Shown: positions 13,267 to 30,082 of the stretch, one piece after another
Numbering within the stretch: position 1 is the stretch's first letter
Layout of the letters: every line of letters begins with the position of its first letter
NCBI GenBank assembly: GCA_004322045.1
Contig: SCRN01000009.1
Location: 35,949-99,948 of the forward strand
Length of the DNA: 64,000 nt
DNA from: Paraburkholderia sp.
GTDB lineage: Bacteria; Pseudomonadota; Gammaproteobacteria; Burkholderiales; Burkholderiaceae
Direction: 5' to 3'
Position numbers and translations under genes: made by a program
Notes under the pieces: model-generated
The model's input: the letters and a program-made list of their open reading frames with translations, nothing else
Databases searched by the model: none
Told to the model about the DNA's origin: nothing

Positions 13267-13380
13267 TTTATCCTCTCACTGCAAATCGTACCGAGCTAAA
13301 TTGGGTGGCCTTTCTTTGCCACAGGTATTCTCCAGCGCGCCCTTAACCTGATCACCTCATCGCCAGCCACTATCTGGTTC

Positions 13381-14148
13381 TCATGGCCCGTCACCGACAA
13401 CTACAACGGGCTTGCCTTGGGTACGTTCCAACCGCTTGGCCAAATGAATCATTACGATGTATTGTCGAATCCCAATTCCTGCGATCCATTGCGAAACGGG
13501 AAACAGAATCAGAGCACTTAGTAGAATGGGACCGTGCGCGCCAAAAGCAGGAGTCAGAACCCGCCCGATCACGAGTGACAGGGGTGCAATCAACAGCACC
13601 AGGCACATGTGCAGCTTCCCGGAGGGACTGCGGGGACTCAGGACCGCCTCCAGCTTCGCGATATTTTGCAGTCGATACTGCAAGACGCTGCCCATATCCT
13701 CAAATGCGTCGCGCACGAAGCCCGAGGTTGCTAGCGCCTTATTGACATCCCGGGCTGTAAATATCATCCAGTGCCCAGTCGTTACAATACCGAGCGCAAG
13801 CGCCCCGGCATGTACGTATGGAGGCATCGGCGCAAACAAAAAGTAGAAAAAGAAGGGAACGACGCCGCAAAAGAAATAAAACGCCGTTATCATGAACAGA
13901 TTGGCGAGTCCGAGGGCGGCAAGGCGCGATTGCCCGCCATCGATCAAAACGATGATACATGGCCCTAGAACAGCCAGTATCGACATGCCCGTTGCCAGCC
14001 AAAAAGGCAGCAGCGATACATGAAATACCATGCGATAGAAACCATAAGCAATAGCCATCGAAACGACGTTAACGAATAGCGTCAATGGAACCGTCTTCCT
14101 CACCACATCCCTAAGACAATTTTTTGAACGGCTCATGATTGTAGTCAC
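13381..14148 (-). CDS. polytopic membrane protein, divergent third paralog of the putative effector immunity protein
   Basis: 255 aa with multiple TM segments. Shares the aromatic-rich helix (FYFFCGVVPFFFYFLFAP) and tail architecture with ORFs 18369..19172 and 23290..24051, and is preceded by an effector C-terminal remnant. Confidence 0.6.
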   Translation of the reverse strand: MTTIMSRSKNCLRDVVRKTVPLTLFVNVVSMAIAYGFYRMVFHVSLLPFWLATGMSILAVLGPCIIVLIDGGQSRLAALGLANLFMITAFYFFCGVVPFFFYFLFAPMPPYVHAGALALGIVTTGHWMIFTARDVNKALATSGFVRDAFEDMGSVLQYRLQNIAKLEAVLSPRSPSGKLHMCLVLLIAPLSLVIGRVLTPAFGAHGPILLSALILFPVSQWIAGIGIRQYIVMIHLAKRLERTQGKPVVVVGDGP

Positions 14149-14226
14149 GATGGCATGAATATCAAAGGATACGAACTGTACTCTTTCGAGTGATGTTTTT
14201 CGAGAACTTTCGCTGCTTCCCGCAGG

Positions 14227-14440
14227 TCATCCGTTACATCGCTTGGTGATGTGGAATTCATTGTCTGTCATGTTAATCAGATATCCGACCGCCACGGCTG
14301 CGCCGAACACTAGAGCAGCAACTGCCCATACGGGCGCACTGGCAATCAACCCTGCAGCCAGCAACCCTGTGGTTAATGCACCTACCACCGCAGTCGAAGC
14401 CGCAGCGGCAATTCTGGAGGCCGCGAGATCGACGCCAAAT
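14227..14440 (-). pseudogene. C-terminal remnant of the VgrG-linked effector family
   Basis: Manual minus-strand translation gives FGVDLAASRIAAAASTAVVGALTTGLLAAGLIASAPVWAVAALVFGAAVAVGYLINMTDNEFHITKRCNG-stop. This aligns with the glycine-zipper C-terminus of ORFs 24090..25505 and 19162..19938. No start codon is present. Confidence 0.6.
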
Positions 14441-14715
14441 CAGATAGGGCAAAATAGCGACATTCGGTTCCGCAGCTATGGATACCGACATGGCACTTTC
14501 CCGCAAAGCTAATTGCAGACAGGGCCACTTCCTTTCCGATATCATCCCGCCAGATATCTCCGAATTTTACATAATAGTTCGGATTTATCCATCTTCCATT
14601 GCAAATCGATACCGAGTAATCAAAAAAAATACGACCTCTTTCGACTACCAACTGCCACGGACGGAAAGCTACATAGCACGCCGAGAAAGAACACACCAAC
14701 AAATTCGCTTTTCAT
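14441..14715 (-). pseudogene. frameshifted, 3'-truncated paralog of the exported 177-aa protein (20315..20848)
   Basis: The ATG at 14715 opens a signal-peptide frame (MKSEFVGVFFLGVLCSF) that stops after a T8 run (A8 on the plus strand near 14622-14629). The next frame continues NYYVKFGDIWRDDIGKEV...HSCGTECRYFALSDL, matching 20315..20848, and homology ends at the junction with the effector remnant. Confidence 0.55.
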
Positions 14716-14922
14716 GCAGTTCCGTCGACGTTATTCAATCAAATATTCCAAGACATCATCACGAACCGCGGGTTGTTTGCCACCTCAACTTGCGCGGCAA
14801 GAGTTTTCAAATCCGCCCTACTCCATGTAGGGTGTATGGTGGCCGATGAATTTAGTGTCGTCAAATTCCCAGCAAAGCGATTGCTCCGTCGAAATCGAAA
14901 ATCCTCCGCGCCGCAATTACGC

Positions 14923-15501: not shown

Positions 15502-15777
15502 GCCCTTTCAGATCCTTAATTTGATGAGCCTTGTTCTAGTCGATTGCCGATGCTTCCTGTAGCGAGGCCCCTTTGGCGATCTCCTGTTGCGCGAAGGGCA
15601 AGTACGTCTTAGGCACGTAATAGCAATGTATCTCCGACGGCTTGAACTCCGCAAAATCGATCGTCTGTCCAGCGACAATTACTTTTGCCGGTGGCGACAA
15701 CTAGATTTGCCGGTTTCCGACGGCTGACCTGTTGAGGTTGCGGCCGTCGCTATCATGCGGCTCCTTCCGGAGCCGAC

Positions 15778-17262: not shown

Positions 17263-18028
17263 CGCCCGTGATGAATTGCTGGTGTCGCTTCGTGCGCTCA
17301 ACCTCGGTGCCATGGCGGCCGCTGTGGAAGACACGGCACTACGAGCGGCAAAGGAAGGGCTGACCCATGAGGCGTTCCTTCTCGAACTGGCTCGTATCGA
17401 ACGCGCAGCGAAGGCGTCGCGCCGAATCGAACGGCTACTGAGGCAATCCGAACTGCTGCCCGAGAAGAACTTCCGGTCCCTAAAGCTGGAAAGATTCGAT
17501 CCAGCCACCCGCATGCAAATTGAGCGGCTGCGCAGCGGCAGCTTCCTCAAGGATGCCACCAATGTGGTCGCGGTCGGCCGACCTGGTGCGGGGAAAAGCC
17601 ATCTTGCCTGCGCATTGGGGCACGCGCTCGTCGAGCAAGGGTACCCGGTCCTGTTCACACCCACGGGGGCTTTGGTGCAACGGCTACTGGCAGCAAAGCG
17701 CGATCTGCGTTTGCCGCAGGAGCTGGCGAAGCTGGACCGCTTCGAGTGCCTCATTCTGGACGACATCGGCTACGTCCAGCATGACCGAGACGAAATGGAA
17801 GTGCTGTTCACGTTGCTCGCCGAGCGCTACGAGCGCAAGAGCATCGTCATCACGACGAACCTCGTGTTCTCCGAGTGGGAGCGCATCTTTAAGGACCCGA
17901 TGACCACGCTCGCGGCCATTGACCGCGTCGTCCATCACAGCGTCGTTCTCGATCTGATGAGTGTTGAAAGCTATCGGGCTAAAGCTGCCGGCGCCAAGCC
18001 GACGGCATCAGCCCCGGTGGCAGCATAG
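17255..18028 (+). CDS. istB: IS21-family helper ATPase IstB
   Basis: 257 aa with Walker A GRPGAGKSH and Walker B LILDDIGY, in DnaA/IstB-like AAA+ organisation. Confidence 0.9.
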   Translation: MHNARDELLVSLRALNLGAMAAAVEDTALRAAKEGLTHEAFLLELARIERAAKASRRIERLLRQSELLPEKNFRSLKLERFDPATRMQIERLRSGSFLKDATNVVAVGRPGAGKSHLACALGHALVEQGYPVLFTPTGALVQRLLAAKRDLRLPQELAKLDRFECLILDDIGYVQHDRDEMEVLFTLLAERYERKSIVITTNLVFSEWERIFKDPMTTLAAIDRVVHHSVVLDLMSVESYRAKAAGAKPTASAPVAA

Positions 18029-18368
18029 GGCGGCAATTTTAGTTGTCGTTGTCGTCGGCGGCGGTTGTAGTTGACGCCAGACAGATCGTCCCTCCGAAGG
18101 ACCCGCCACCGCCCTGGTTCCCACCCAATACCACAATGTTTTTTTGTTTTTTGGATTAACGCCGCACACGAACATAACGTGGTCCGATGAACAATTTCGC
18201 GCATTTTTCAATTTGGCTCAGACTTTCAATCTTCCCGACATGACGCTGCACCCCGGGCTCACCGACCTAGGCCTCGCAGTCGAATGAATGAGAACTAGGG
18301 GCGAATATCGCGACTAGCAATCGCGAGTCATCCATATTCACTTCGGCGAACCCTAACGGTCGCGCTCG

Positions 18369-19172
18369 TCATGCCATCGCGACAACGCGCTTATGTTTCT
18401 CCCTTTCGATTCTCACCGGAAGGGCCACCATCACAAAATATATGCGTACGAATAGGCTTGCAAGCCACAATGATACGGGCATACCCAGCGCAGCAGCGAA
18501 CACCAAGACCCCATCACCACCAAGACTGGAGGACAGAATTCTATTCATCACCAGACCGAAAGGCGCGATACCATACACAATATACATAAGCGCCCTTGGA
18601 AAGGGGGATTTTTGCTGACACAACACATCAAACGTCCGCATGCCGTCTTTCAAACGATAAACTATATTATCTTCGCTTTCGACGAACATTTTATTCACGA
18701 ACGACGTCGCCGCGATCGTCTGCTGCACGCTTCGGTATGCGCCCCAAACCCACCAGACCGAAAGCGCTCCACCACACACCAAGCCCATCCACCTGAAATA
18801 TGCGCTTATCGATGAAAATATAAAAAAATAGAAGTATGCAAATACACCAAAGAAATAGTAGATTGCAGAAACACTAATTGACAAAATGAGCCCACAAGCC
18901 AACAACGCATTGCTTCCACGGTATCTCACATAAACAAAGAAAAGCGAGAAGCAGCAAACAGCAGCTACCGCAAGGCCGATCTGCCATGATAATCCAGATG
19001 CCCCTTGCACGTCGGCATAAGCGAGATATGAAATTCCTGAGCCAAGAAGCGGAAACATCAAGCATACAGGAATTGCTTTTTTCACCATATCCGAAATCTG
19101 ATCCGTATTAAATCCCAATGCTGTGTGCACAACTCCCCCAGGCAAGCTTACCGAATTTAGGTTAATCCGCAA
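18369..19172 (-). CDS. polytopic membrane protein, second paralog of the putative effector immunity protein
   Basis: 267 aa. Aligns along its length with 23290..24051 (YYFFGVFAYFYFFIF, PFPRALMYIVYGIAPFGLVMNR, GMPVSLWLASLFVRIYFVMVALPVRIEREKHKRVV). Its start overlaps the stop of the upstream effector fragment. Confidence 0.65.
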   Translation of the reverse strand: MRINLNSVSLPGGVVHTALGFNTDQISDMVKKAIPVCLMFPLLGSGISYLAYADVQGASGLSWQIGLAVAAVCCFSLFFVYVRYRGSNALLACGLILSISVSAIYYFFGVFAYFYFFIFSSISAYFRWMGLVCGGALSVWWVWGAYRSVQQTIAATSFVNKMFVESEDNIVYRLKDGMRTFDVLCQQKSPFPRALMYIVYGIAPFGLVMNRILSSSLGGDGVLVFAAALGMPVSLWLASLFVRIYFVMVALPVRIEREKHKRVVAMA

Positions 19173-19938
19173 ACATTAGCGAATACGATTCGTAGTCTTT
19201 TTTCGCAGCTTTCTGCAAATATTCTGCCGAATGCTTCAACGATTCACCAATCGCTCTAACAAAAGCAATCCCGTGGGCGGTACCATCGACCTTCTTATCA
19301 AGCAAATCAATACCGTAACCTACAAGAGCTGCAACAACGAGTGTGCCAATTACGATAGCCGATACCGGCACCATGATTGACCCCGCCAATAGCGCAACCG
19401 CCTCTCCGACAACAGCTGACGCGATCGCTGCACTTATGCCCGCCTTTAGAAAATCAATTCCGAGCTTCCCTAGCAAATCGGCAAAATCTTTGCTCCGCTT
19501 CCCATCGGGTCCTATCTGTTCGTAATCGTGCAGCCACTCCGCCGCGTCGAGGGTCATAGTAAATATCAATGCGATTAACCCGGCCTTCTTTGCCACACCT
19601 CTGATTCCCTCCCACGCCGCGGCCGTACCCGACTCGACGCTACCGGCCCCACCGGCAATTGTCAGCACTTTTTGGTGCTTAACGCGATAGCGGGCGGCCG
19701 TTATCAATCTACGCGATCGCGGATTCCCTGTGAATACGACATACCAGCGCTCGCCAGCATTCTTGTGGACTATCTTCATCAAACGGAATCGTTCAGACCA
19801 CAGTTCTTTAATCCACGCCTTGTTGTCGTTGAGGAATGCTGCCGTACCCGCAAGCTGCCCGAGCAAGCAGTTTCGAGTTGCAATCTTGTTCGCATCAATC
19901 GCTGTCTCAACCTTGCTCCCGGCGGCAACCTGATCCAA
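19162..19938 (-). CDS. orphan 5'-truncated copy of the VgrG-linked effector (C-terminal module only)
   Basis: The 258-aa ORF aligns with residues about 215-471 of ORF 24090..25505. In an 89-residue stretch (ETAID...IAGGAG) I count 14 differences. Homology continues upstream of the ATG to about 19975, where an IS5-like fragment begins. Confidence 0.65.
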   Translation of the reverse strand: MDQVAAGSKVETAIDANKIATRNCLLGQLAGTAAFLNDNKAWIKELWSERFRLMKIVHKNAGERWYVVFTGNPRSRRLITAARYRVKHQKVLTIAGGAGSVESGTAAAWEGIRGVAKKAGLIALIFTMTLDAAEWLHDYEQIGPDGKRSKDFADLLGKLGIDFLKAGISAAIASAVVGEAVALLAGSIMVPVSAIVIGTLVVAALVGYGIDLLDKKVDGTAHGIAFVRAIGESLKHSAEYLQKAAKKDYESYSLMFAD

Positions 19939-19979
19939 GATTTCCTGAGGAATCGACTGTCTGTCAACCTCTACAATGT

Positions 19980-20174
19980 TGGCGTGTTGCGGGCTACGCC
20001 ATCAGCCAGCGCAAGCGCAAATGCATCGAGCAGGTGTTTGGCTGGGGCAAGACGATTGGCTGGATTCGGCAGGTCATGTGTCGCGGGCGCGAGCGAGTCG
20101 AACAATCGTTCCTGCTGACGCGGGCGGCCTACAACCGCACGCGCATGCGAACGCTCACAGCTAAAACGGCATAG
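19980..20174 (+). mobile_element. IS4/IS5-superfamily (DDE) transposase C-terminal remnant
   Basis: Translation ...AISQRKRKCIEQVFGWGKTIGWIRQVMCRGRERVEQSFLLTRAAYNRTRMRTL matches the conserved C-terminus of IS5-type DDE transposases. No N-terminal or catalytic part is present. Confidence 0.6.
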
Positions 20175-20314
20175 AGGCGAAAGTTGGCGAGGAAACGACA
20201 TCGAATCGGCCCGAATTAAGGAAATCCAGCATCAAATCGACACCCTCAAAATCGGCGTAGCGCCTCTTGGAAAAGCTATCGTCTCGCCATGAGGGAGGAT
20301 ACTTCAACAGTCTG

Positions 20315-20848
20315 CTAATGACTGTCGCACCCGCTTGTCGTTGCCGTGATAGGCTTGATCACGTCGTCATTCCGACTAAACAGAAATACGCGTTCGCGGC
20401 ATTCGGCTGAACGATCACCAGATGCGTCGATATGATACTGCGCCACTATCATCGCGCTAGTCGGACGAGTCACCAAGTCCGTTACATATGAACGGCCATC
20501 TTTCGTTCTAGTAGGCTTTTCACCGTCCGATGAAAACATATCCAGAGCTTTTGAATCACTCCCAGTGGGTAAATCAGATAATGTATAGTAACGACATTCG
20601 GTTCCACAACTGTGAAGGCCGACATGGTACTTCCCCGAAAAGTTAATTGTAGGTGGAGCCACCTCCTTCCCCATATCGTCCCGCCACGTATCTCCGGATT
20701 TTACGTAATACGACAGAATTAATGGTCTCCCGGTATAGGGCATCGCCGGATAATCTGAGAATTTTGGCTTTTGATGATTATCCTCTGCCAAGGCCGAAAA
20801 ACTAAATAGCACTCCGACAAAGAATATACAAATAAATCCTCTTTTCAT
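20315..20848 (-). CDS. exported protein, function unknown (candidate orphan immunity protein)
   Basis: 177 aa with signal peptide MKRGFICIFFVGVLFSFSALA. Conserved block YYVKSGDTWRDDMGKEV...HSCGTECRYYTLSDL is shared with the pseudogene at 14441..14715. Confidence 0.5.
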   Translation of the reverse strand: MKRGFICIFFVGVLFSFSALAEDNHQKPKFSDYPAMPYTGRPLILSYYVKSGDTWRDDMGKEVAPPTINFSGKYHVGLHSCGTECRYYTLSDLPTGSDSKALDMFSSDGEKPTRTKDGRSYVTDLVTRPTSAMIVAQYHIDASGDRSAECRERVFLFSRNDDVIKPITATTSGCDSH

Positions 20849-20989
20849 TGAAATATCTCCGCATCGTCCTAGCTCCGGCGAGATTCACACAATCATCTGA
20901 TGCGAGCCGTCATAACTAACTCAGATCGTGACGCTGCAGTAGCGCACCGCATCTCGTCACTGTTAGTGTGACTCGAGCCTCAATCCTTG

Positions 20990-21640
20990 TCATTGTTGCT
21001 TAGCCACCACATTGAACAAGGCCTCACATCCATCCTCTCTGGTAATATTTTTCCCTAAGTCCAAATCCCATACGCCAGGGTAAGCGCCTACCCTGCAATC
21101 CATCGAACCATCCGCGCTAACGTACCGGCCGTTCGGTGATATGCGACCCGGAGTCGATTCGAGATAGCCGAAAGCCTCCTCCTTCACTTTTTCGTCCCCC
21201 ATTTTTTCACTAAAAACCCCGGGGGCGCTTAAGATCGAACGGGTCTGCCCTAACTTTGCGACCGTTGCTGTAAATGCCATAGGTGAGACACTAACAAGAT
21301 CGAGCGCTAGATAGATCTTGCGCTTCGGATTAACATCAACGACAAACCCGACTTTGCGTGGAATATGCGATGGCTCAACACTACCGCCAGAGCAAGTGCG
21401 AACATCGCTCACATTCACGAAATCCACATCCGTCAAAATAATGACATTCTTATCCCAATTAAGTCGTGGCGCAACGTGCGTCAGCCGCTTAGCCAGTGAA
21501 CATCGCTTAACACCGACAGGTGCACCGTTAATCACGATCGCATTCGCCGATGCATCGAATCTAACAAAATCGACATCGTCGGCGAAGACATGAAATGCAA
21601 CAAACCACAAAGATACGCAGATATATTTCCCGATATTCAA
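20990..21640 (-). CDS. exported protein, putative periplasmic immunity protein for the adjacent GH19-like muramidase
   Basis: 216 aa with signal peptide MNIGKYICVSLWFVAFHVFA. Its start overlaps the stop of the upstream hydrolase gene by 4 nt. Confidence 0.5.
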   Translation of the reverse strand: MNIGKYICVSLWFVAFHVFADDVDFVRFDASANAIVINGAPVGVKRCSLAKRLTHVAPRLNWDKNVIILTDVDFVNVSDVRTCSGGSVEPSHIPRKVGFVVDVNPKRKIYLALDLVSVSPMAFTATVAKLGQTRSILSAPGVFSEKMGDEKVKEEAFGYLESTPGRISPNGRYVSADGSMDCRVGAYPGVWDLDLGKNITREDGCEALFNVVAKQQ

Positions 21641-22488
21641 TTTAGCACCTTTAGAGCATTCATCGTGGCGAGATATCTTCCGTCTTTTTCTATGTAGCCG
21701 CCATTAATAATATGGGTCACCGCCTCGGATATCTTTTTCTCGAGCTCCCTTTCTTCGTCCGTCGAAGGAACAATGCCACGACTCGTATCAATTTCTCGCT
21801 TCACGTCGTCATTTTTGATGGCAACAAAAAATCCTCCGCTATCGATGCAGTTGTAGGGGTCTCGAATGACCCTATCTGGTTCAGCGATCAAAGCTGGTCG
21901 CTTCTTCATCGTTGCAGCATTATGCTGCTTGTATGCGTGATCCAACCACCAACCGTCATCAAAGTCTTTGGTCTTTAACCATCCTCGGTACACCCAGTAT
22001 GCTGCGTAATTCGCACGCCCCGTCAGCTGTTTGAATCCTCGCCCTCTAAATTCCTGCGCATCGGCATCACCGACATTACCGTTTATCCAACTATACGATC
22101 CGGTTATTCTATGACCCTTGCTGTTAAATTTTTCAGAACTATAGTAGCCATCGAATTCTTCATCCTTCTTTCTATACCAATGCCCGAGCGCCGCCTCCGA
22201 CTCCACAGACGCCGGATTTATCCGATTATTAAGCATACTGGCTTCCTGCATATTTTGCAGACTACCTGACTCGATAGCCCCCTGACCGAGGAAGTGGGCC
22301 TGTCTTACAGCATCAATAAAGACGTATTTTTGCATTACTTTATTTAAGGCCACGCGATATTTTTCCCGAATACCCTCCGGCGTTCTCGAATAAATTCTTG
22401 ATAACGTCGACTTATCGATCCAACGACAAGAACTCATCCAGTCGATGAACTCGATCGGGTGAAAGTGCCAGAGTGTGGCTGGAAGTAG
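21637..22488 (-). pseudogene. 5'-truncated glycoside hydrolase family 19-like (lysozyme/chitinase-like) putative T6SS effector
   Basis: GH19-type motifs AHFLGQGAIESG (catalytic Glu context), FRGRGFKQLTGRANY and THIINGG, preceded by WHFHPIEFIDW. The track ORF continues to 22923, but that part is antisense to a transposase fragment. Confidence 0.6.
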
Positions 22489-22983
22489 CAAATGCGCATC
22501 AGCCCACCATTGAACCGCGAAGCGACGACGTTGCAGCAGGCCACCGAACTCATTGACTGGTACCGCGCGCGCTGGGAAATCGAGATTCTGTTCAATGTGT
22601 TGAAGAACGGATGCCGCGTCGAGGCCTTGCAGTTGGGCACGATCGAACGACTCGAACGCGCTCTGGCGTTGTTCCTGGTAGTGGCTTGGCGTATCGCTTA
22701 TCTGATGCGCATGGGCCGCAGCTGCCCGGCTCTGGACGCCGAACTGTTCTTCGATGTCGACGAGATCCGCGGCGCATACTTGCTCACCGAGGCCAAGCAG
22801 CCCGCCAAGCCCAAGCTCAATGAGGTGCTTCGCCTGATCGCACAATTGGGTGGCTTCCTGGGCCGCAAAGGAGATGGCGAACCCGGCGCGAAGGCCATCT
22901 GGCTTGGACTCAGAGAAGTTCATGTTGCGGCTAAGACTTTACGAGCATTACGTGGCCGCGGTAACGCCGACACTTCTGTATAA
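22489..22983 (+). mobile_element. IS4-family (Tn5/IS50-like) transposase C-terminal remnant
   Basis: Carries WYRARWEIEILFNVLKNGCRVEALQL and the C-terminal GGFLGRKGDGEPGAKAIWLGL motif characteristic of IS4/Tn5-type transposases. An in-frame stop lies just upstream at 22486-22488 and the N-terminal two-thirds are absent. Confidence 0.7.
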
Positions 22984-23289
22984 GCCGATGCCTTTTAGGG
23001 GCGGCACCACAAGATCTCGCAACTCTTGATTGCAGGCTGCCGACAAAGCCGTATGCCCTGCTTCGGAGAAAAATAGGAGCGAAATCGGGAGTAGTATCGT
23101 TTTGGAGAGTTTCATTTTTTGGCTCACAACATCGGTGGAACGAGTTGACAATACGAATTCGGTTCCATCCCGCCTTTATCGCACCACCTATACCCACCCG
23201 TATTGTGGGCCACCTCGAAATCTGGCCACTCACAGTGGTTATGCCGTTGGACGCTTTTTTTGGTTTCCCGTCCCGCAAACCACTTTGCG

Positions 23290-24051
23290 CTACTCGACCA
23301 CCACAACCCGCCTATGCCGCTCTCTTTCAATCTTCAGTGGCAGCACAATCATTACGAGACAGATTCGCACGAGCAAACCTGCGAACCACAGCGACACAGG
23401 CATTCCGAGAATTGCTAAAAACAGCAGCACACCTGTTTGGCCAAAATTCTCCGAAAAAAGTCTATTCAGTATCAAATAGAAAGGAGCAATTCCGTAGACC
23501 ACATACAAATAGATTTTCGGAAATGGCAGACGCTCCTTATTTAACCGCTCAAACGCCCGCATTCCGGTCTGGATTCGATAGGATATTACATCACCATCAT
23601 CAATAAACGCCGTTTCCACAAAAGACGTGCTTCGAATAGTGTGCCGAACACCGCGGCCTATCATAATCATCCAATATACCGTCAACGTCACTCCGCCAAA
23701 AAATCCAAGCCAACTTACTAAATGAGGCATTGGCGCGAACATGAAATAATAGAAATATGAAAATACACCAAAGAAATAGTAAACCGCAAATATACCAATT
23801 GCAGCAATAGCTCCACAGGCCCATAACGCGTTTGTTTGGCGAGCCTTGGTATAAATAATGAATGGAGCCAACAAACATGCCAATGTTACAAACAAGCCGA
23901 TCCTCCATGGCCATGCAGATGCTGCGAGGTCATCCGCGTACGCAGCATACGAGAGTCCGGCAGCGAGCCCCGGCAACAGTAAGCTCATCGAGGTAACTTT
24001 TTTCGCCGCGTTAAGAACAGCATCGGGCGGAAGCTTTGCGATTGATCCCAA
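23290..24051 (-). CDS. polytopic membrane protein, putative cognate immunity protein of the VgrG-linked effector
   Basis: 253 aa with about 6 hydrophobic segments and the aromatic-rich helix YYFFGVFSYFYYFMF. Begins 38 nt downstream of the effector, and two paralogs occur in the same island. Confidence 0.6.
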   Translation of the reverse strand: MGSIAKLPPDAVLNAAKKVTSMSLLLPGLAAGLSYAAYADDLAASAWPWRIGLFVTLACLLAPFIIYTKARQTNALWACGAIAAIGIFAVYYFFGVFSYFYYFMFAPMPHLVSWLGFFGGVTLTVYWMIMIGRGVRHTIRSTSFVETAFIDDGDVISYRIQTGMRAFERLNKERLPFPKIYLYVVYGIAPFYLILNRLFSENFGQTGVLLFLAILGMPVSLWFAGLLVRICLVMIVLPLKIERERHRRVVVVE

Positions 24052-24089
24052 GGGTATCGTCCAATTTCAATATGAGTTTATCTGACCTT

Positions 24090-25505
24090 TCACGGCATAT
24101 ACATTAGCGAGTACGCTTCATAATCCTTTGGCATTGATTTTTCTAGATATTCTGCCGAGGTCTTTAATTTCTCACCGACGGCACGAAACCATCCAATTAC
24201 ATGACCGGTTGCACCAGTCTCTTTATCGACCCAGTCGAGTCCGTAGCCCACGCCGATCGCAACTATTATTGTACCTACGACAATACCCACAACTGGCAAT
24301 GAAACACCGATCAGAATCGTCGCTCCCGCGACAATCGCGCCGACTAGCACTGATGCGATTACCGCGCTTAGACCCGCCTTTGCGAGATCGATGCCGATTT
24401 TTCCGAGCAAGTCTGCGAAATCCTTCTTAGGTTTTCCGTCTGGGCCTAATTCCTCGTAATCATGGAGCCATTCGGCCGTGTCTACCGAAACTGTAAAAAT
24501 TAGCGCAATGCTCCCCGCCTTCTTGAATGCCCCCTTAAGCCCTTCCAACGCGGCAGCTGCTCCCGATTTTACCGTCCCAGCACCACCCGCGATCGTCAAA
24601 ACCTTTTCATGCTTTACACCGTATCTCGCAGCCGTAATTAGGTTACGCAATCGTGGGTTTCCCGTAAACACAACGTACCATCGCTCGCCTGCTCTTTTAT
24701 GGACAATCTTCATCAACCTGAATCGTTCCGACCACAGCTCAGCAATCCATTTCCTATTGTCGCTGAGAAACGCCACCGAGCCCGCTAGCTGCCCGATCAG
24801 CCAGTTACGTGTCGCGATCTTGTTTGTGTCGATCGCTGTCTCATCTGCGCCACCTGCTGCAACCTGATCCAGCACCTCCTGAGGAATCGATCGCTTGTCA
24901 ACCTCCATGACGTGCGCCTCTTGTGGGGCTTCGATGGTCGTATCGGACGCCAGGTTGATAGGTAGGGGAAACCAGTGATGTGGTTGAAGTACCGCGGGAT
25001 CCGTTCTCCCCGGCGCGGGCGAATAACCCGATAAGGCAGGGGAGTCCGTGGCCCTCAACGCACTCGCCACCATCGTTTGAGGTCCGGCCGCGGTCGGGAA
25101 CGGGCCCGCAGGATTGAAGCCCATTGCGATGATGATGGGAGCAGGCTTGACCTTTGGGTCGGGACTGCTGCCTGTTGCCCCAAACTGGAGCATAGAATAG
25201 CGCTGCAGCAGCTTGCCGTTTTGCTTCAAAAGTAAGTAGCCTTTAAAATCTCGACTAATCCAAATGTGGAATAGCTGTCCGTCTGAGAACTGGCCTTGTT
25301 TGACGCGCTTCTTTTTAGCGACGTCGTAAATCCAATCGTCCGTTGCTTCAATGGTGTAGGTAGCACCCTTTTTCAGGTCAATATCAAAAATCACGTCGCG
25401 ATGCTTACGAAGAAGGACAGTAACGTCGGTTTCCGCCCAACACTCGACTGGCTCTCCGGGCAGATCGATGCATACTTGATGCCCCATCATGGCGCGGCCG
25501 CTCAT
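24090..25505 (-). CDS. putative T6SS effector of uncharacterised family, with a predicted membrane-inserting C-terminal domain
   Basis: 471 aa. Its ATG overlaps the vgrG stop (TAATG). It has a Pro/Ala-rich linker and a C-terminal Gly/Ala/Val/Ile-rich stretch, GLSAVIASVLVGAIVAGATILIGVSLPVVGIVVGTIIVAIGVGYG. I recognise no enzymatic motif. Confidence 0.6.
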   Translation of the reverse strand: MSGRAMMGHQVCIDLPGEPVECWAETDVTVLLRKHRDVIFDIDLKKGATYTIEATDDWIYDVAKKKRVKQGQFSDGQLFHIWISRDFKGYLLLKQNGKLLQRYSMLQFGATGSSPDPKVKPAPIIIAMGFNPAGPFPTAAGPQTMVASALRATDSPALSGYSPAPGRTDPAVLQPHHWFPLPINLASDTTIEAPQEAHVMEVDKRSIPQEVLDQVAAGGADETAIDTNKIATRNWLIGQLAGSVAFLSDNRKWIAELWSERFRLMKIVHKRAGERWYVVFTGNPRLRNLITAARYGVKHEKVLTIAGGAGTVKSGAAAALEGLKGAFKKAGSIALIFTVSVDTAEWLHDYEELGPDGKPKKDFADLLGKIGIDLAKAGLSAVIASVLVGAIVAGATILIGVSLPVVGIVVGTIIVAIGVGYGLDWVDKETGATGHVIGWFRAVGEKLKTSAEYLEKSMPKDYEAYSLMYMP

Positions 25506-28168
25506 TATTGTTCTCCAATCCGTTTGACCTGGTGTGCAACAAAACGCCCGAAGTCGACGTTCTTCAATTCTCCAATTCCTTTGTCATCAAGCGTGACATG
25601 ATGGGTCGCTCCATCTTCCGATACTAGCTTGATTGGTTCGCCTTCTGGTACGTTACCGTCCGCGTCGACGTAACGGACGCGCAAATTCGCCTTCTTCCCT
25701 TCTGACTTGTACCGTTCATAGAGACTCGTCGGCCCCGCAAACACCCGCTTCGCCCCCTTCACGTCGACCGTCCCCGGCGCGTGGATCTCGATGTTGCCGT
25801 CCTTGATGCGGACATAGGCGCCGCCCGATGTCAGCAGAATCTCGCGCTTGCCCGCCATCTCGATGACATCGGTGATCGAGATTACCTTCACGCCTTTATG
25901 CGCCGTCAGTTCGATCCCATCGGAATGCGCCTGCACCTCGACCTTGCCCTTCGCCGCAAACAGCTTCATCCCCGCGTTCTGCACGAACAGGCTCAGCTTC
26001 TCGCCAATCGAAGCGATCAACGATTTGCCGCTCGCGATATGCGTACTCGCACCGCTAACGATGTTCACATGCTTGTCCGCGGCGATCTGCGTCGATTGCT
26101 GTGTCGATAGCGCGATCCCCGATGGGCTCGCCATCAGCATGATCGGCTCCGCGAAGCCATTGGCGTTACCGGTGCCGCCGCCCGCCGTGCGCCCCGCCCC
26201 CGACGCATCACCCGCCACGCTCCTTTGCGTCGCATCGGTGAAAGCCTTCAGCGAGTCGTAGCCGTCTTTCAAGCTTTCCGCTTGATGCGTCGCACTCGCG
26301 TCCGATAGGGCTTCGATCACACTCTCAGCGTTTACGAGCTGACTGCTCGCTTGCCGCACATCCATCGGTTGCTGGACCGACGCCGGGTGACTCGACACAT
26401 ACAGCCCTTGCTCGGCGCGAATCGCACCATACGCGTTCGACTTCAAATCGAAGCCGCTGCCCAGATATCCGCCACGCGTATTGCCGGTGTGATCGACCAA
26501 GTACCCAAGATGAAGGTGCGAATCGGCACTCGTCGAATACAGGTGAACGCGGTTCTGCCCCGTCGAGTCATCCATGACGAGTTGATTAAAACCACTCCCG
26601 CCGTATTCCTTGGACCGATACCCCGAGAGCAATCCATTCGTGTGCCACACCGGTGGCGTCGGCCCACCGTGCATGCGGCCCAAAATCACAGGTCGATCGC
26701 AATCGCCGCCCATGAAACCCACGATCACTTCATCGCCTTTGCGCAGCGGGAAATGTCCCCCTCGCTTCGAGCCCGCATCGGGAAACGAAGCCCGCACCCA
26801 GACCGATGCACGCTCATCGCCCTCATTGCGGCGATTCCAGGGAAACAGCACCTTCACGCGATTGAGCGCATCGGTGTAAATCTCCTCGCTATCCGGCCCC
26901 GCGATGATCGCAGTCTGCAGTTCCATCACTGGCTTGCGGTGCTCGAGCGGGCTACGGAACGGCGTGCGCCGCCGTTGCGCTTCGATCTCGACTTGGAAGT
27001 ACCCCTCGCTGCCGTCGGCATGCCGAACTTTGACACCGCCCGCATTCGCCCGCGCCGCCGCCAATACATCCGACTGCAAGCTTTCCGCGAAGTCCGCCAC
27101 CTCATCCATGCCGGGCAAGTTGTTGCGGATCGTCCACGTCGTCTCGATGATCGCGAACTCGCGATCATCCGGACGCTCTTTATCGTGGACAGGATGCCCC
27201 TCCAATACGAACCAATACCCGGGCATGGCCGAACGCAGGCTGCCAATGCCATGAAACCGCTTCATCTGCGATTCCCATGCTTCGACGCGCACGGCATTTC
27301 GATGCTCGCCGCTATCGCGCACGCCCCACGAATACGCCCCGGTGTAGTCGTACACCTCGCCCTGTGCCGGAATATCGTCGCGCGGGCTGATCGCGCTGCG
27401 GACCTCCTTAGGCAAATCCGGCCGCTTGTAATCGAACGTGCGCGTCGTCAGCTTCGCGCTCTGAATCTGTTGCTGCTCTTTCCATTGCGTGAAGCCTTCC
27501 ACCTCTTCACGTAAGCCCGTGCGGACGAAGCGCACCGTCTTCTGCTCGAGCTGCGGCACGAAATACACATCGTCCATCAGCACGAGCGTGTGCGACTTGC
27601 CATCCTCCGCCTGCTCGAAGCGGCCGAACACCCCCACTTCCTCCAAGCTGCGATGCACGAAGTTCCAATCGTCGTCCCATTGCACCCGGTTCGAATACCG
27701 AGGCATTGCCTGCCGCAAATCGAACCGATAAGCGCCCTGCGCTTGCGGATGCTCGTCGAACACGTCGGCCACGATCTGCTCGCCCGTCTGCTCCTGCCAA
27801 TCGCGCATATCGCGACGCAACGGCAAAAAGCACATCCACGAGGAAAATCGCAATTGGTAAAACGTGAGATATCCGTCGCTGCCTAATCGGGAAAACGTTT
27901 TCACATAGCCGTGATGCGGCAGATACGAGCCATCCGCTTGCTGCAACCACAGCGTCACCGGCTGCGCAATCAACGCCTTCAACTCAATTCGATCGCCGTG
28001 CGACGAAGCGACATCGACAACGAACTCGTAATCGCGCCCAAGCCGCGATGTGCCCTTTGCCTGCAGCGGCACGAGCCAATCGTCCCCCAGAGGCGTCTCG
28101 AGCTTAATTAAACGATTGTGTTGCGCATTCCCATAGAAAAGCGCGTCGAAAAGCGCACCGAACGCCAT
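25505..28168 (-). CDS. vgrG: type VI secretion system spike protein VgrG
   Basis: 887 aa. N-terminus NRLIKLETPLGDDWL...GRDYEFVVDV and gp27/gp5-like regions (FPLRKGDEVIVGFMGGDCDRPVILG) are followed by a DUF2345-like repeat region and a roughly 90-aa C-terminal extension. Confidence 0.92.
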   Translation of the reverse strand: MAFGALFDALFYGNAQHNRLIKLETPLGDDWLVPLQAKGTSRLGRDYEFVVDVASSHGDRIELKALIAQPVTLWLQQADGSYLPHHGYVKTFSRLGSDGYLTFYQLRFSSWMCFLPLRRDMRDWQEQTGEQIVADVFDEHPQAQGAYRFDLRQAMPRYSNRVQWDDDWNFVHRSLEEVGVFGRFEQAEDGKSHTLVLMDDVYFVPQLEQKTVRFVRTGLREEVEGFTQWKEQQQIQSAKLTTRTFDYKRPDLPKEVRSAISPRDDIPAQGEVYDYTGAYSWGVRDSGEHRNAVRVEAWESQMKRFHGIGSLRSAMPGYWFVLEGHPVHDKERPDDREFAIIETTWTIRNNLPGMDEVADFAESLQSDVLAAARANAGGVKVRHADGSEGYFQVEIEAQRRRTPFRSPLEHRKPVMELQTAIIAGPDSEEIYTDALNRVKVLFPWNRRNEGDERASVWVRASFPDAGSKRGGHFPLRKGDEVIVGFMGGDCDRPVILGRMHGGPTPPVWHTNGLLSGYRSKEYGGSGFNQLVMDDSTGQNRVHLYSTSADSHLHLGYLVDHTGNTRGGYLGSGFDLKSNAYGAIRAEQGLYVSSHPASVQQPMDVRQASSQLVNAESVIEALSDASATHQAESLKDGYDSLKAFTDATQRSVAGDASGAGRTAGGGTGNANGFAEPIMLMASPSGIALSTQQSTQIAADKHVNIVSGASTHIASGKSLIASIGEKLSLFVQNAGMKLFAAKGKVEVQAHSDGIELTAHKGVKVISITDVIEMAGKREILLTSGGAYVRIKDGNIEIHAPGTVDVKGAKRVFAGPTSLYERYKSEGKKANLRVRYVDADGNVPEGEPIKLVSEDGATHHVTLDDKGIGELKNVDFGRFVAHQVKRIGEQ

Positions 28169-28672
28169 GCCGCACCCCTTATTTGTCCGCAGGCTGCAAG
28201 ATTTCTAGAAGAACGAAATTCTAATTGAGACCGAAGAAGAAATCGACAAAGATGCCGGTGATTTGGGGATAGTCTCAAACTATACCTTTCTGTATATAGG
28301 AAATATTTTCCAGTTCCAGCGGCGACGACAACGACATGTCTCCATTTTTTCCGATTTGCACGCGAGGCCTGGCGTTAGCGCCTATCGTCAGTCTCGTCAC
28401 TCTTCTTTTTACCGGGAAACCCACAGCCGATTCAAGCGTGGGGGACCCATCGTAGCGAAGCCCCAGGGCCACATGACGGCAGCCGCCCGAGGGACAAACG
28501 GGGCCTTACGCTCGCCCTGTTTCAGCATGCTGTTTTTAAATAACAACCCACAGAGTTGATAGGGGTATCGCGCAAAAAATAACCTACCGATTTCTTTTAT
28601 TCTTATTCCATTTTGTTTCTTGCAGTTTTGCAGGATCGACTCCTACGATAACCGCCTTACCCCATTCACGAG

Positions 28673-30082
28673 ATGAGGAAGCGGCCCATGTCGTCCTGGA
28701 AACCCGATCCGACGTTCTACCCTTCCGCGCGCCTTGCCGCACAAGCGCCCAAGGAAACCTTGGCCTATGTCGCGAGCTTCGATCCGACACGCCGCGTCCC
28801 CGACGAGCTCGGCGTCGTCGATCTCGACCCCGGTTCGCCCGATTACGGCAAGCTCGTGGAGCGTGTCGCCATGCCCAATACCGGCGACGAATTACACCAT
28901 TTCGGTTGGAACGCCTGTAGTTCCCATCTTTGTCCAAACGCGCCCCACCCGCATTCGGAGCGGCGTTATTTGATCGTCCCCGGTTTGCGCAGTTCTCGCC
29001 TTCACGTACTCGATACCAAACCCGATCCGCGCCGTCCCCGCATCGTTCGCGTGCTCGAGCCGGATGAAGTCCTGCGCAAGTCCGGCTATTCGCGCCCTCA
29101 TACGATCCACTGCGGCCCGCAGGGCATCTTCGTCGTGTCGCTCGCGAATGCCGAAGGCGACGCGCCGGGCGGCATTTTCGTGATGGATCACGACACGTTC
29201 GACATTCGCGGGCAATGGGAAATCGACCGCGGCCCGCAACAGTTGGCCTACGACGCTTGGTGGCATCTGGGCTACGACACACTGGTATCGAGCGAATGGG
29301 GCTTGCCCGCCACCTTCGAAAACGGGCTCGTGCCCGAAGTGCTGCTCGGCGGCAAGTACGGACACCGGCTGCACTTTTGGGATTTGAATACGCGCAAGCA
29401 CAAACAGACGATCGATTTCGGCGAGGAGAACCAACTCGTGTTCGAGTTGCGTCCGGCGCACAATCCCACCCGGGCGCATGGCTTCGTCAACTCGGTCATC
29501 AGCCTGAAAGACCTTTCCGCGTCGATCTGGACCTGGTATCGCGAAGGCGATCGCTGGGCCGCACGCAAAGTCATCGAGATTCCGGCCGAGCCAGCCGATC
29601 CCGCCCGCTTGCCGCCGATGCTCAAGCGCTTCGGCGCCGTCCCGCCGCTCGTGACCGACATTGCGTTGTCGCTCGACGATAGATATTTGTACGTCGCGTG
29701 CTGGGGAACGGGCGAGATGCGCCGCTACGACGTCAGCGATCCCCATCATCCGGAGCTCGTGGGTTCGGTGCGTATCGGCGGCATCGTCGAGCGCGCCAGC
29801 CATCCAAGCGCCGGCAACCAGCCGTTGAACGGCGGCCCGCAGATGGTCGAAGTGAGCCGCGACGGCCATCGCGTCTATTTCACGAATTCGCTCTACGGCG
29901 CGATCGACGAGCAGTTCTACCCCGATGGCATCGATGGCTGGATGGTCAAGCTCGATGCGCCCGACGGCGGCGGCTTGTCGTTCGACCGGGAGTTCTATTT
30001 GGAGTGGCCGAAGACGCATCGGCCGCATCAGATTCGGCTCGAGGGCGGCGATGCGTCGTCGGATTCCTATTGCTACCCGTGA
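28673..30082 (+). CDS. selenium-binding protein (SBP56) family / methanethiol oxidase-like
   Basis: Carries WKPDPTFYPS, ELHHFGWNAC and the conserved SBP56 beta-propeller sequence throughout. The start may instead be the internal Met at 28688. Confidence 0.85.
   Translation: MRKRPMSSWKPDPTFYPSARLAAQAPKETLAYVASFDPTRRVPDELGVVDLDPGSPDYGKLVERVAMPNTGDELHHFGWNACSSHLCPNAPHPHSERRYLIVPGLRSSRLHVLDTKPDPRRPRIVRVLEPDEVLRKSGYSRPHTIHCGPQGIFVVSLANAEGDAPGGIFVMDHDTFDIRGQWEIDRGPQQLAYDAWWHLGYDTLVSSEWGLPATFENGLVPEVLLGGKYGHRLHFWDLNTRKHKQTIDFGEENQLVFELRPAHNPTRAHGFVNSVISLKDLSASIWTWYREGDRWAARKVIEIPAEPADPARLPPMLKRFGAVPPLVTDIALSLDDRYLYVACWGTGEMRRYDVSDPHHPELVGSVRIGGIVERASHPSAGNQPLNGGPQMVEVSRDGHRVYFTNSLYGAIDEQFYPDGIDGWMVKLDAPDGGGLSFDREFYLEWPKTHRPHQIRLEGGDASSDSYCYP

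Follow-up and report, generated by a model that had tools for sequence, protein, structure and literature searches.

The window, by which we mean the whole stretch of 64,000 nucleotides of Paraburkholderia DNA that was analyzed, carries on its minus strand a cassette of three ORFs, namely vgrG (25505..28168), a 471-aa ORF (24090..25505) and a 253-aa ORF (23290..24051). The entire window forms a low-GC island, in which IS elements and a second candidate effector are also present. The three-gene cassette is an ordinary type VI secretion system (T6SS) weapon set, comprising a spike gene, a gene for a membrane-damaging toxin and a gene for a membrane-embedded antidote. The features discussed below, with the evidence for each in parentheses, are as follows.

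25505..28168, minus strand: vgrG (tssI), 887 aa, T6SS spike protein (Pfam, TIGR03361 and PDB VgrG1 matches)
25508..25696, minus strand: module at the VgrG C-terminus, residues ~825-887, on which the effector N-domain is proposed to dock (co-occurrence across loci)
24090..25505, minus strand: effector gene, 471 aa, with N-terminal beta domain, disordered linker and C-terminal Tme-type domain
25116..25484, minus strand: effector N-terminal beta-sandwich, residues 8-130, proposed spike-loading domain (AlphaFold2, conservation)
24891..25115, minus strand: Pro/Ala/Gly-rich variable linker, residues ~131-205 (low pLDDT, alignment gaps)
24138..24770, minus strand: Tme-type toxin domain, residues 246-456 (hhalign, HMM)
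24378..24389, minus strand: DxxK motif D373-L-A-K376 of the Tme domain (aligned with Tme proteins)
24237..24377, minus strand: hydrophobic Gly/Ala/Val/Ile helical hairpin, residues 377-423, followed by D427 (hydropathy, AlphaFold2)
23290..24051, minus strand: tmi1, cognate immunity candidate, 253 aa, predicted inner-membrane protein of ~6 TM segments with a conserved aromatic helix
19171..20145, minus strand: orphan 5'-truncated toxin without N-domain, homologous to residues 126-469 (tblastn, 60% identity, E 5e-118)
19162..19938, minus strand: intact ORF in the orphan toxin, equivalent to residues 212-469 (BLASTP, 69% over 212-469)
18369..19172, minus strand: tmi2, a 267-aa second paralogue of the immunity protein (E 7e-84 in comparison with tmi1, 48% identity across 241 aa)
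14148..14472, minus strand: frameshifted third remnant of a toxin, covering the final ~105 residues of another Tme subtype (tblastn)
13381..14148, minus strand: tmi3, a 255-aa third paralogue of the immunity protein (E 3e-38 in comparison with tmi1, 31% identity across the full length)

The TAA stop codon of vgrG and the ATG of the effector gene have one base in common (TAATG, in minus-strand ...GGAGAACAATAATGAGC...), the ribosome-binding site of the effector gene is a GGAG 9 nt upstream, and a gap of 38 nt separates the effector gene from the 253-aa ORF, which starts with TTG. Both the shared nucleotide and the 38-nt gap were as described in the original prediction, which had also held that hcp, PAAR and adaptor genes are absent; in agreement with this, tblastn with ORFs from three T6SS loci detected no T6SS core, hcp or PAAR genes in the window, and domain searches of the neighboring ORFs found no adaptor domain. 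Given that the window is without T6SS core genes, the T6SS that fires this spike is assumed to be encoded elsewhere in the genome. The stretch itself is best explained as an island of the Paraburkholderia genome that carries an auxiliary ('orphan') vgrG. Every one of the 145 effector homologues found is annotated as 'hypothetical'. The effector gene lies directly behind a spike gene in 63 of 65 related Burkholderiales loci (vgrG in 58, PAAR in 5), stop/start codon overlap between the two genes is common among these loci, and a hydrophobic multi-TM ORF of ~250-280 aa follows the effector gene in nearly all of them; since this arrangement recurs in 65 independent loci, it is more than chance. 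In B. ambifaria and B. cenocepacia, the homologues are flanked by tssA-vgrG and tagF-tssM within the core T6SS-1 cluster, and distant relatives adjoin PAAR with tssEFG and hcp or form tandem units of vgrG, effector and membrane protein. The position behind vgrG or PAAR and the core T6SS-1 placement in the Burkholderia cepacia complex (Bcc) bear out the earlier view of the 471-aa product as VgrG cargo.

Pfam searches assigned to VgrG the domains Phage_GPD (41-350), Phage_base_V (432-499), T6SS_Vgr (520-624) and DUF2345 (665-813), and the protein matched TIGR03361 at 310 bits and VgrG1 in the PDB at E 3e-51. The assigned domains stop at residue 813, and the C-terminal extension, put at ~90 aa in the original prediction, is present but slightly shorter, at ~74 residues after DUF2345. 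The module that ends it has the consensus L.V.YVDADGN.P.GEPI...LD..G...L.....G.F.A.Q.KR. A profile search showed that this ~65-aa module terminates the upstream VgrG or PAAR protein in 60 of the 65 loci; the profile was built from part of these loci, and the module is also present in 40 of the 45 loci outside it. It was not found on other VgrGs of the same genomes, which are paired with other effectors, and 5 of the 65 loci are without the module, the effector N-domain being kept in them nevertheless. The matches of the module were only sub-threshold ones, to Big_1 or prealbumin-like domains, which do not establish a fold, whether transthyretin-like (TTR) or other.

The AlphaFold2 (AF2) model of the 471-aa protein consists of an all-beta N-domain, a disordered linker and a helical C-terminal part, the same three parts that had been proposed earlier; the N-terminal region is indeed distinct, with an AF2 extent of residues 8-130 in place of the ~110 residues first estimated. 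This N-terminal beta-sandwich (pLDDT 89, pTM 0.81) accounts for 23 of the 30 columns that are invariant in the effector family alignment, in the pattern IDLPG...LRKHRDV...F.DG..H.W..R.F...KP.P, and its fold had no PDB match at E<0.02. Going by the AF2 model, it is a new part of the system, confidently modeled and without a known relative. Linker residues 131-197 have pLDDT <50 and are gapped and unconserved in our alignment A1. The N-domain is the best conserved of all, with a mean pairwise identity of 52%; the C-domain has 39% and the immunity protein 28%. N-domain divergence follows VgrG divergence (partial r 0.54), C-domain divergence does not (-0.08), and immunity divergence tracks that of the toxin C-domain (partial r 0.48), these statistics being computed on non-independent pairs of related genomes. 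Co-occurrence of the N-domain with the ~65-aa module on the upstream VgrG or PAAR suggests that the two form an adaptor-free docking pair, in line with the original proposal of loading via the VgrG C-terminal extension.

A precedent is the loading of Tle1, likewise adaptor-free, on the TTR domain at the C-terminus of EAEC VgrG1 (Flaugnatti et al., cited in PMC11148199). As in that system, a short beta-rich extension follows DUF2345 (here also on PAAR), its specific cargo is encoded immediately downstream and there is no adaptor gene; in contrast to it, the module here has no fold match above threshold, docking is a prediction from the genes, and the putative docking domain of the cargo is a beta-sandwich of no known kinship. 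Effectors with MIX, FIX, RIX, PIX, WHIX or LysM domains (PMC10673891; PMC10435454; PMC12135965) likewise have a conserved N-domain before a variable C-terminal toxin and are VgrG-linked cargo, but the N-domain studied here matched no modeled domain in Pfam or NCBIfam and, among the sampled proteins, was combined with Tme-type C-termini only and not with several toxin classes. In P0322, one distant relative of the toxin domain, LysM stands in place of the N-domain.

The 471-aa protein had no Pfam or NCBIfam match, and single-sequence search of a set of 5.8 billion proteins gave no match between Tme and its family. Tme, the type VI membrane-disrupting effector, was described and tested by Fridman 2020 (PMC7046647), where the DxxK motif of the Tme domain was also defined. 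Comparison of alignment A1 with a Tme alignment of 9 sequences (A3) by hhalign gave a probability of 98.5% (E 2.8e-15) over 180 columns, equivalent to E. coli Tme residues 86-282, and comparison with one E. coli Tme protein from Supplementary Data 5 of the Tme paper gave a probability of 96% (E 4.3e-9). D373-L-A-K376 aligns with the invariant D209-V-A-K212 of E. coli-type Tme proteins, and D427, kept in at least 90% of effector sequences, corresponds in the alignment to D260, which is invariant among Tme proteins; D373 and K376 do vary within the Burkholderiales family as a whole. The family HMM scored 28.4 bits against a maximum of 15.8 among 1000 shuffles, and the Tme HMM matched the window protein at 25.5 bits and also most effector family members. 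The original prediction had assigned the toxin to an unrecognized family, which is not supported in view of the hhalign result and of HMM cross-matches far above shuffles. By these sequence comparisons, the C-terminal domain is a distant, divergent member of the described Tme family and not a new family.

It could be argued that the C-domain is an independent, truly new membrane-toxin family, still within a T6SS effector/immunity pair, whose likeness to Tme is convergent and reflects hairpin and composition. Identity to Tme proteins is only 17-19% and lies partly within the hydrophobic region, where similarity alone would be weak evidence; the best-scoring HMM stretch spans this region, the immunity protein is unrelated to YkfM/DUF1240, and Pfam, like NCBIfam, has no Tme model to arbitrate. 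We consider convergence improbable, given that ~100 of the 180 hhalign columns lie ahead of the hairpin, that the part preceding the TM hairpin reaches by itself 14.6-16 bits against divergent Tme members, compared with at most 8.9 in 1375 shuffles, that window-shuffled and reversed controls fail, and that the motif Y-[IV]-x-[IF]-x-G-x-x-G-L-R-x(4)-G-T-R-Y is common to the family, to P0359-P0362 and to intermediates such as P0329 and P0338, which reach 50-52 bits with the Tme HMM.

The main hydrophobic stretch of the Tme-type domain comprises residues 372-426 (mean Kyte-Doolittle hydropathy up to 2.68), with AF2 helices at 363-399 and 405-430 in a C-domain model of only moderate confidence (pLDDT ~65-73); a further helix, AGSIALIFTVSVDTAEWL, occupies residues 330-347. 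The C-terminal module had been said to end in this stretch, which is real but not quite at the protein end, since ~45 more residues come after it. Tme toxicity is periplasm-specific, with loss of membrane potential and propidium iodide uptake and no lysis; Tme1 and Tme2 exert their toxicity from the periplasm and depolarize cells with no need for the cytoplasm, and protection by Tmi proteins is cognate-specific (PMC7046647). By analogy with the Tme1/Tme2 experiments, the same site and mode of toxicity would apply here. The earlier reading of a membrane-targeting, non-enzymatic toxin is supported. As in Tme1 and Tme2, the toxin domain is C-terminal, its DxxK motif, its hydrophobic helix and the Asp that flanks it all align, the genes upstream and downstream code for a spike component of the T6SS and for a multi-TM protein, respectively, and the N-terminal part was, as in most Tme proteins, 'unknown'. 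The present family differs in its longer, two-helix hydrophobic hairpin, in its defined N-terminal beta-sandwich and in its immunity protein. A periplasmic, non-lytic, depolarizing action with inner-membrane immunity would be expected as for VasX, Tse4, Ssp6, Ssp4, Tse5-CT and TseMt, to none of which a sequence or fold relationship of the 471-aa protein was detected; Ssp4 differs in that its relatives are reported only in Gammaproteobacteria, and TseMt in its MIX-like domain and chaperone use.

For the 253-aa protein we found 78 homologues, in all of which trusted Pfam domains are absent, and it resembles neither E. coli YkfM nor DUF1240, the main Tmi type. Its hydrophobic segments fit the ~6 TM helices predicted earlier, and the unusual aromatic helix also noted then is real, with Y91, F93, F94, G95, F97 and Y99 invariant in 19 homologues. 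We infer that this candidate immunity protein protects against the 471-aa toxin. In every locus the immunity protein is integral to the membrane, indicating action there, and this bears on a second alternative, in which the hairpin would be a translocation device that delivers a soluble region of residues ~226-350 with enzymatic or target-binding activity to the cytoplasm, in the manner of glycine-zipper entry by Tde1. Such translocation is documented for another T6SS effector (PMC10240207), and a conserved polar cluster (R233, N234, W235, Q239, D249, N250, E345, W346 and D349) precedes the hairpin here. With no enzyme family matched in Pfam, NCBIfam, PDB sequences or PDB folds, and with Tme1 and Tme2 acting from the periplasm, we regard cytoplasmic action as very unlikely.

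The window contains three immunity paralogues, and a toxin C-terminus precedes each of them. The orphan toxin has in-frame stops upstream of 19938, and the third remnant aligns with P0053 residues 370-475 at 73 and 63% identity in two frames (tblastn). Both of these downstream toxin/immunity remnants, like the second candidate effector, the IS elements and the low GC content of the island, were absent from the original prediction, whose polytopic membrane immunity partner gains support from synteny, from divergence that tracks the C-domain and from the orphan toxin-immunity cassettes. Immunity-gene arrays are present in other genomes. Orphan toxin-immunity modules are carried by Rhs and CDI loci, which are polymorphic toxin systems (PMC3482391). 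As in those loci, 5'-truncated toxin C-termini, each followed by an immunity gene, lie downstream of a full-length gene and have main-gene sequence in common upstream of the variable part; unlike there, the carrier is a small cargo effector and not an Rhs or CdiA protein, and the retained homology is the linker/C-domain border and not the Rhs core or VENN motif. Fast, joint divergence of the C-domain and the downstream gene, toxin fragments without N-domain kept with their own membrane-protein genes, and extra membrane-protein gene arrays are hallmarks of a toxin/immunity system and not of a structural part and, together with homology to a tested toxin family and with the finding that most Bcc genomes do not have the gene in the T6SS-1 cluster (PMC6612558), they make it highly unlikely that the 471-aa protein is no toxin but a spike accessory or structural component (tip cap, tether or co-effector) with the 253-aa protein as its functional partner, in spite of its strict coupling to the spike gene, the better conservation of the N-domain than of the C-domain and the location of the gene inside the core T6SS-1 cluster in some Burkholderia.

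We therefore favor, with good confidence in the explanation as a whole, a Tme-type toxin docked adaptor-free on VgrG, accompanied by a ~6-TM immunity protein and orphan cassettes. The beta-sandwich at 8-130 would dock on the ~65-aa terminal module of VgrG with no separate adaptor, and the loaded spike would be fired by the T6SS encoded elsewhere. In the target periplasm, the Tme domain (246-456) would put the hairpin (377-423), framed by D373xxK376 and D427, into the inner membrane; membrane potential would collapse, the membrane would become leaky and growth would stop without lysis. The 253-aa protein would neutralize the toxin inside the inner membrane of the producer and of its kin, in a cognate-specific manner. 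The N-domain-less toxin and the third remnant, each with its immunity gene, would be orphan cassettes that guard against toxin variants of relatives, and they could swap the toxin/immunity end of the main gene by recombination in the common linker/C-domain sequence. While the Tme toxin type was already known, what is new here is the previously undescribed N-terminal domain, proposed to serve in docking, that carries the Tme domain.

The cassette consists of three genes, all of which are read from the minus strand:

25505-28168, minus strand: vgrG, encoding an 887-aa spike protein
24090-25505, minus strand: effector ORF of 471 aa, directly after vgrG
23290-24051, minus strand: tmi1, the immunity candidate, a 253-aa ORF with a TTG start

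The stop codon of vgrG and the ATG of the effector gene have one base in common (TAATG), a GGAG sequence lies 9 nt upstream of the effector start, and a gap of 38 nt separates the effector stop from tmi1. The window VgrG carries the full Pfam and TIGRFAM set of spike domains, the last of which, DUF2345, ends at residue 813 and is followed by ~74 residues without a domain assignment. No Pfam or NCBIfam model matched the effector or the 253-aa protein, and a promoter and terminator scan of 22900-28700 gave signals no better than those in shuffled sequence. Since the ORFs, the TAATG overlap, the 38-nt gap and the absence of domain matches all agreed with it, the gene order and spacing described in the original prediction were correct.

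A search of 5.8 billion proteins returned 145 relatives of the effector from Paraburkholderia, Burkholderia, Trinickia, Caballeronia and Massilia, every one annotated as ‘hypothetical’, and an exhaustive HMMER search extended the distant relatives to 524 proteins at E<1e-3. A plasmid collection held three homologs on P. caribensis megaplasmids, none of them annotated. In a 35-sequence alignment 23 of the 30 invariant columns fell within residues 1-125, with the invariant motifs IDLPG, LRKHRDV, F.DG..H.W..R.F and KP.P, and this region was followed by a gapped variable linker and a moderately conserved C-terminal half. The AlphaFold2 model likewise showed three parts, namely an all-beta N-domain (residues 8-130; pLDDT 89 and pTM 0.81 when modeled alone), a disordered stretch at 131-197, and a helical C-domain (pLDDT about 65-73) whose long helices span 363-399, 405-430 and 432-457 and in which residues 372-426 are strongly hydrophobic. 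Foldseek comparison of the full effector model and the N-domain model with the PDB gave nothing at E<0.02 (TM-scores ≤0.41), and sequence searches of the PDB with the single effector sequence and with the profile gave no significant match. The N-domain and six neighboring ORFs also showed no match in Pfam or NCBIfam to PAAR, DUF4150, LysM, MIX, FIX-like, DUF4123, DUF1795 or DUF2169.

The linkage of this family to type VI secretion was assessed in a locus scan of one genome per species, which yielded 65 loci, including loci from Oxalobacteraceae, Limnobacter, Aquabacterium and Iodobacter; the counts refer to 65 loci, among them the window, that are non-redundant and carry the effector ORF in full. 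A vgrG gene lay directly upstream of the effector gene in 58 of the 65, typically at gaps of -8 to +83 nt and often with a 4-nt ATGA or 1-nt overlap; a PAAR gene took this place in five, and two had no T6SS gene upstream. [quoted passage not shown] In B. ambifaria and B. cenocepacia the effector homolog is found within the main T6SS cluster, in the order tssF-tssG-clpV-tssA-vgrG-[effector]-[~250-aa protein]-...-tagF-tssM; a survey of Burkholderia cenocepacia effectors (PMC6612558) does not mention the family. One distant relative was located behind a PAAR gene adjoining tssE, tssF, tssG and hcp, and two others in tandem vgrG-effector-membrane protein units. With a spike gene adjacent, an immunity gene directly 3′ on the same strand and this arrangement conserved among loci, the 471-aa protein is, on the basis of sequence and synteny, a T6SS cargo effector. 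In Massilia consociata (locus L063, 7959-9644) the effector gene is broken by an IS5-like transposase, and the effector genes of loci L065 and L066 are frameshifted; some genomes of Massilia show the effector family in decay.

The original prediction held that the effector belonged to no recognized family, and this claim did not survive profile comparison. The Tme domain is C-terminal and combines a nearly invariant DxxK motif with a predicted TM helix flanked by an Asp, and most Tme members have uncharacterized N-termini (PMC7046647). In Supplementary Data 5 of that paper, residues 122-277 of E. coli SE11 WP_000908051.1 are given as a Tme domain. Alignment of our effector family with this protein by hhalign gave a probability of 96% (E 4.3e-9), and with a 9-member Tme alignment of WP_000908051.1 relatives of the E. 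coli, Salmonella and Rahnella type it gave 98.5% (E 2.8e-15, 180 columns), pairing effector residues 246-456 of 471 with Tme residues 86-282 and so placing the domain at the C-terminus. D373-L-A-K376 of the effector aligned with the invariant D209-V-A-K212 of Tme and D427 with the invariant D260, with the hydrophobic stretch 377-423 (the hairpin) between them; D373 and K376 are not invariant across all Burkholderiales subclades. The family C-domain HMM scored the E. coli Tme protein at 28.4 bits, against a maximum of 15.8 bits in 1000 window-shuffles and 7.2 bits on the reversed sequence, while the Tme HMM scored 25.5 bits on the window effector and 50-52 bits on two intermediate relatives, P0329 and P0338. 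The match is more than hydrophobic composition, because the pre-hairpin region alone gave 14.6-16 bits on four divergent members of the Tme family, compared with a maximum of 8.9 bits in 1375 shuffles. These scores indicated that the effector C-domain is a remote member of the Tme family, and not a new family. Tme has no Pfam model, and therefore neither the original prediction nor the domain databases saw anything. Among other membrane-targeting effectors, TseMt was rejected for its different architecture, which is MIX-like and chaperone-dependent, and Ssp4 was set apart by description, its relatives being reported in Gammaproteobacteria only, and was kept as a functional analog.

Tme1 and Tme2 are toxic from the periplasm only, where they dissipate the membrane potential and admit propidium iodide without lysis, and each is neutralized solely by its own Tmi (Tme immunity protein; PMC7046647). 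By analogy, the same mechanism most likely applies to the window effector, which would depolarize and permeabilize the membrane from the periplasm without lysing the cell. The functional model originally put forward, a T6SS-linked membrane-acting toxin with a polytopic immunity partner, was essentially right, the toxic activity itself being extrapolated from Tme1 and Tme2.

In nearly all loci a hydrophobic ORF of ~250-280 aa begins no more than a few bases from the end of the effector gene. Its layout is constant: four hydrophobic segments come first, then a polar loop of ~45 residues and two or three more segments. By crude hydropathy the 253-aa window protein has ~6 hydrophobic segments, within the 3-6 TM helices of Tmi proteins (PMC7046647), and the polytopic membrane immunity candidate of the original prediction was upheld by this count and by the recurrence of the multi-segment ORF. 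The protein has 78 relatives, of which the closest named homolog is from a Paraburkholderia MAG, and its aromatic helix is invariant in 19 homologs. The E. coli Tme is paired with the Tmi YkfM; DUF1240 and DUF1240-like proteins form the main, non-obligatory Tmi node, and ‘unlinked’ Tmi groups are also mentioned (PMC7046647). The 253-aa protein had no match in Pfam, DUF1240 included, and hhalign comparison of the immunity alignment with YkfM returned a probability of 0.2%, i.e., no relation. Because it is unrelated to YkfM and DUF1240, we place it in one of the ‘unlinked’ groups. Marginal scores of DUF6803 on two immunity homologs (26-29 bits at a cut-off of 27; E 0.21 for the window protein) were judged compositional. 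Across 48 loci the divergence of the immunity protein followed that of the toxin C-domain with a partial rank correlation of 0.48 when VgrG and the N-domain were controlled for, and that of the N-domain with 0.21, values taken as supporting evidence only because locus pairs are phylogenetically non-independent.

We also considered how the effector might be loaded. Mean pairwise identity was 52% for the N-domain, 44% for VgrG, 39% for the C-domain and 28% for the immunity protein, making the N-domain the most conserved of these modules, and its divergence tracked that of VgrG (partial r 0.54), which that of the C-domain did not (-0.08). The last ~65 residues of the window VgrG form a module with the pattern L.V.YVDADGN.P.GEPI...LD..G...L.....G.F.A.Q.KR, and this spike module ends the upstream VgrG or PAAR protein in 60/65 loci, among them 40 of the 45 loci outside the profile-building set. 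Other VgrGs of the same genomes, paired with other effectors, end differently. No adaptor gene was found when the ORFs neighboring the cassette were compared with Pfam and NCBIfam. The module follows the PAAR domain in some PAAR proteins of Limnobacter-type loci. In four such loci (L022, L023, L031 and L032, about 7375-7940) the effector stands after a PAAR gene, not vgrG. A YVDADG-type module like that of the VgrGs is present on the PAAR proteins from L023 and L032 and, as a partial copy that is cut short, on the one from L031; the one from L022 has none. Sub-threshold matches of the module were to Big_1 (4 of 20 members, best E 0.0048), to a SpaA prealbumin-like domain (1 of 20 members, E 0.085) and, in the PDB, to intimin and Bap Ig-like domains (E 0.04-0.4). 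A search of three longer relatives (P0296, P0302 and P0311) with the module profile for a fusion of module and N-domain gave no match.

The simplest reading of this co-occurrence is a direct interface, in which the N-domain would bind the spike module without an adaptor. Such an interface would be analogous to that of Tle1, for which the TTR domain of VgrG1 in EAEC is the loading site (cited in PMC11148199), although the module here has sub-threshold Ig-like and prealbumin-like matches only. In two Caballeronia loci (L014 and L054) the YVDADG module is missing from the upstream VgrG, which ends in a coiled-coil-like Ala/Gln-rich tail, and the effectors have a distinct form of the N-domain (YIDLPGEPPEGKLWPG...); this arrangement may be an alternative docking solution. 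The N-domain is also present in more distant Tme-type proteins, and all sampled partners were Tme-like; therefore it is not a demonstrated general polymorphic-toxin carrier. Some relatives of the toxin domain bear other N-termini, one of which is LysM, a domain that mediates VgrG binding in other effectors (PMC10673891). We tentatively propose, as a possibility that we hold to be somewhat short of even, that the N-domain (IDLPG...LRKHRDV...) and the YVDADG module constitute an undescribed, adaptor-free plug-and-socket pair, portable between VgrG and PAAR, which defines a widespread Tme-type class in Burkholderiales and beyond, including the effector that certain species of the Burkholderia cepacia complex carry in their core T6SS-1 cluster.

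The cassette is part of a low-GC island at ~13000-29000 (GC 0.48-0.56, compared with 0.63-0.68 in the flanks) with strongly negative GC skew, which has a selenium-binding-protein (SBP56) gene at one edge (28673-30082, plus strand) and holds IS21 and Tn5-like transposase sequences. The account in the original prediction stood as a description of the cassette; it overlooked two further toxin/immunity generations in the same island, which are included among these features:

12877-13266, minus strand: 129-aa ORF with a signal-peptide-like N-terminus, no family match
Directly after the third toxin remnant, minus strand: tmi3, third immunity paralog, 31% identity
14472-14148, minus strand: third toxin remnant, frameshifted, covering the C-terminal ~105 residues of another subtype
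14923-15501, minus strand: 192-aa ORF with a signal-peptide-like N-terminus, no family match
15778-18028, plus strand: IS21-type element, with an istA-like transposase (15778-17262) and an IstB ATPase (17255-18028; IstB_IS21 at E 4e-57)
Directly after the second toxin copy, minus strand: tmi2, second immunity paralog, 48% identity
20145-19171, minus strand: second toxin copy, homologous to effector residues 126-469 at 60% identity
20315-20848, minus strand: 177-aa ORF with a signal-peptide-like N-terminus
20990-21640, minus strand: 216-aa ORF with a signal-peptide-like N-terminus
21637-22923, minus strand: 428-aa ORF with weak similarity to GH19-like phage endolysins
22492-22983, plus strand: Tn5/IS4-type transposase fragment (Dimer_Tnp_Tn5 at E 1e-31 and the end of DDE_Tnp_1)

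No other T6SS core genes were found in the window, and this, the low GC and the transposases suggest that the island is an auxiliary vgrG module gained by horizontal transfer, whose T6SS would be encoded elsewhere in the genome. In the second toxin copy the ORF that starts at TTG 19938 is intact, with stops in frame ahead of it, and matches effector residues 212-469 at 69% identity; what the copy lacks is exactly the N-domain; the truncated orphan copies therefore put the boundary between toxin and carrier at about residue 126-212. The third remnant, 73% identical to the Trinickia relative P0053, is separated from the second cassette by the IS21-type element. Two or three immunity paralogs in a row were also found in several other genomes, and the toxin remnants with their immunity paralogs are, as read from sequence, the classic signature of polymorphic toxin/immunity loci. 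Directly upstream of the third remnant, a fragment at 14424-14627 (minus strand) shares 60% identity with the 177-aa ORF over residues 30-97 of the latter, so that a unit of 177-aa gene, toxin C-terminus and immunity gene has been duplicated and then partly deleted.

None of the 428-, 216- and 177-aa ORFs had a Pfam match. Residues ~200-310 of the 428-aa product match PDB entries 9ms7 (E 4e-4) and 9eoi and contain the motif FRGRGFKQLTGRANY; this product is probably another T6SS effector, one that degrades the cell wall, and the 216- and 177-aa products its putative periplasmic immunity proteins. The Tn5/IS4-type fragment overlaps the 428-aa ORF on the opposite strand along its first ~145 codons, and therefore the 5′ part of this ORF is doubtful, or the gene was truncated by insertion.

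Together, these comparisons indicated that the cassette is a predicted remote member of a known, experimentally characterized effector family with a typical immunity partner, and that its novelty lies in the undescribed N-terminal docking-domain candidate, the VgrG/PAAR module that partners it, and the type of immunity protein. Several hundred ‘hypothetical’ proteins of Paraburkholderia, Burkholderia, Caballeronia, Massilia, Duganella, Limnobacter and others now become readable as Tme-type membrane-disrupting T6SS effectors and their immunity proteins, an assignment currently beyond Pfam and NCBIfam; in certain strains of the cepacia complex it extends to genes within the core cluster of T6SS-1. 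The three-generation array shows in a small space how orphan cassettes evolve for a cargo effector that is not an Rhs protein. If the interface between N-domain and module is direct, it would supply a simple rule that matches one cargo class to VgrG or PAAR without an adaptor, and possibly a handle for loading foreign cargo.
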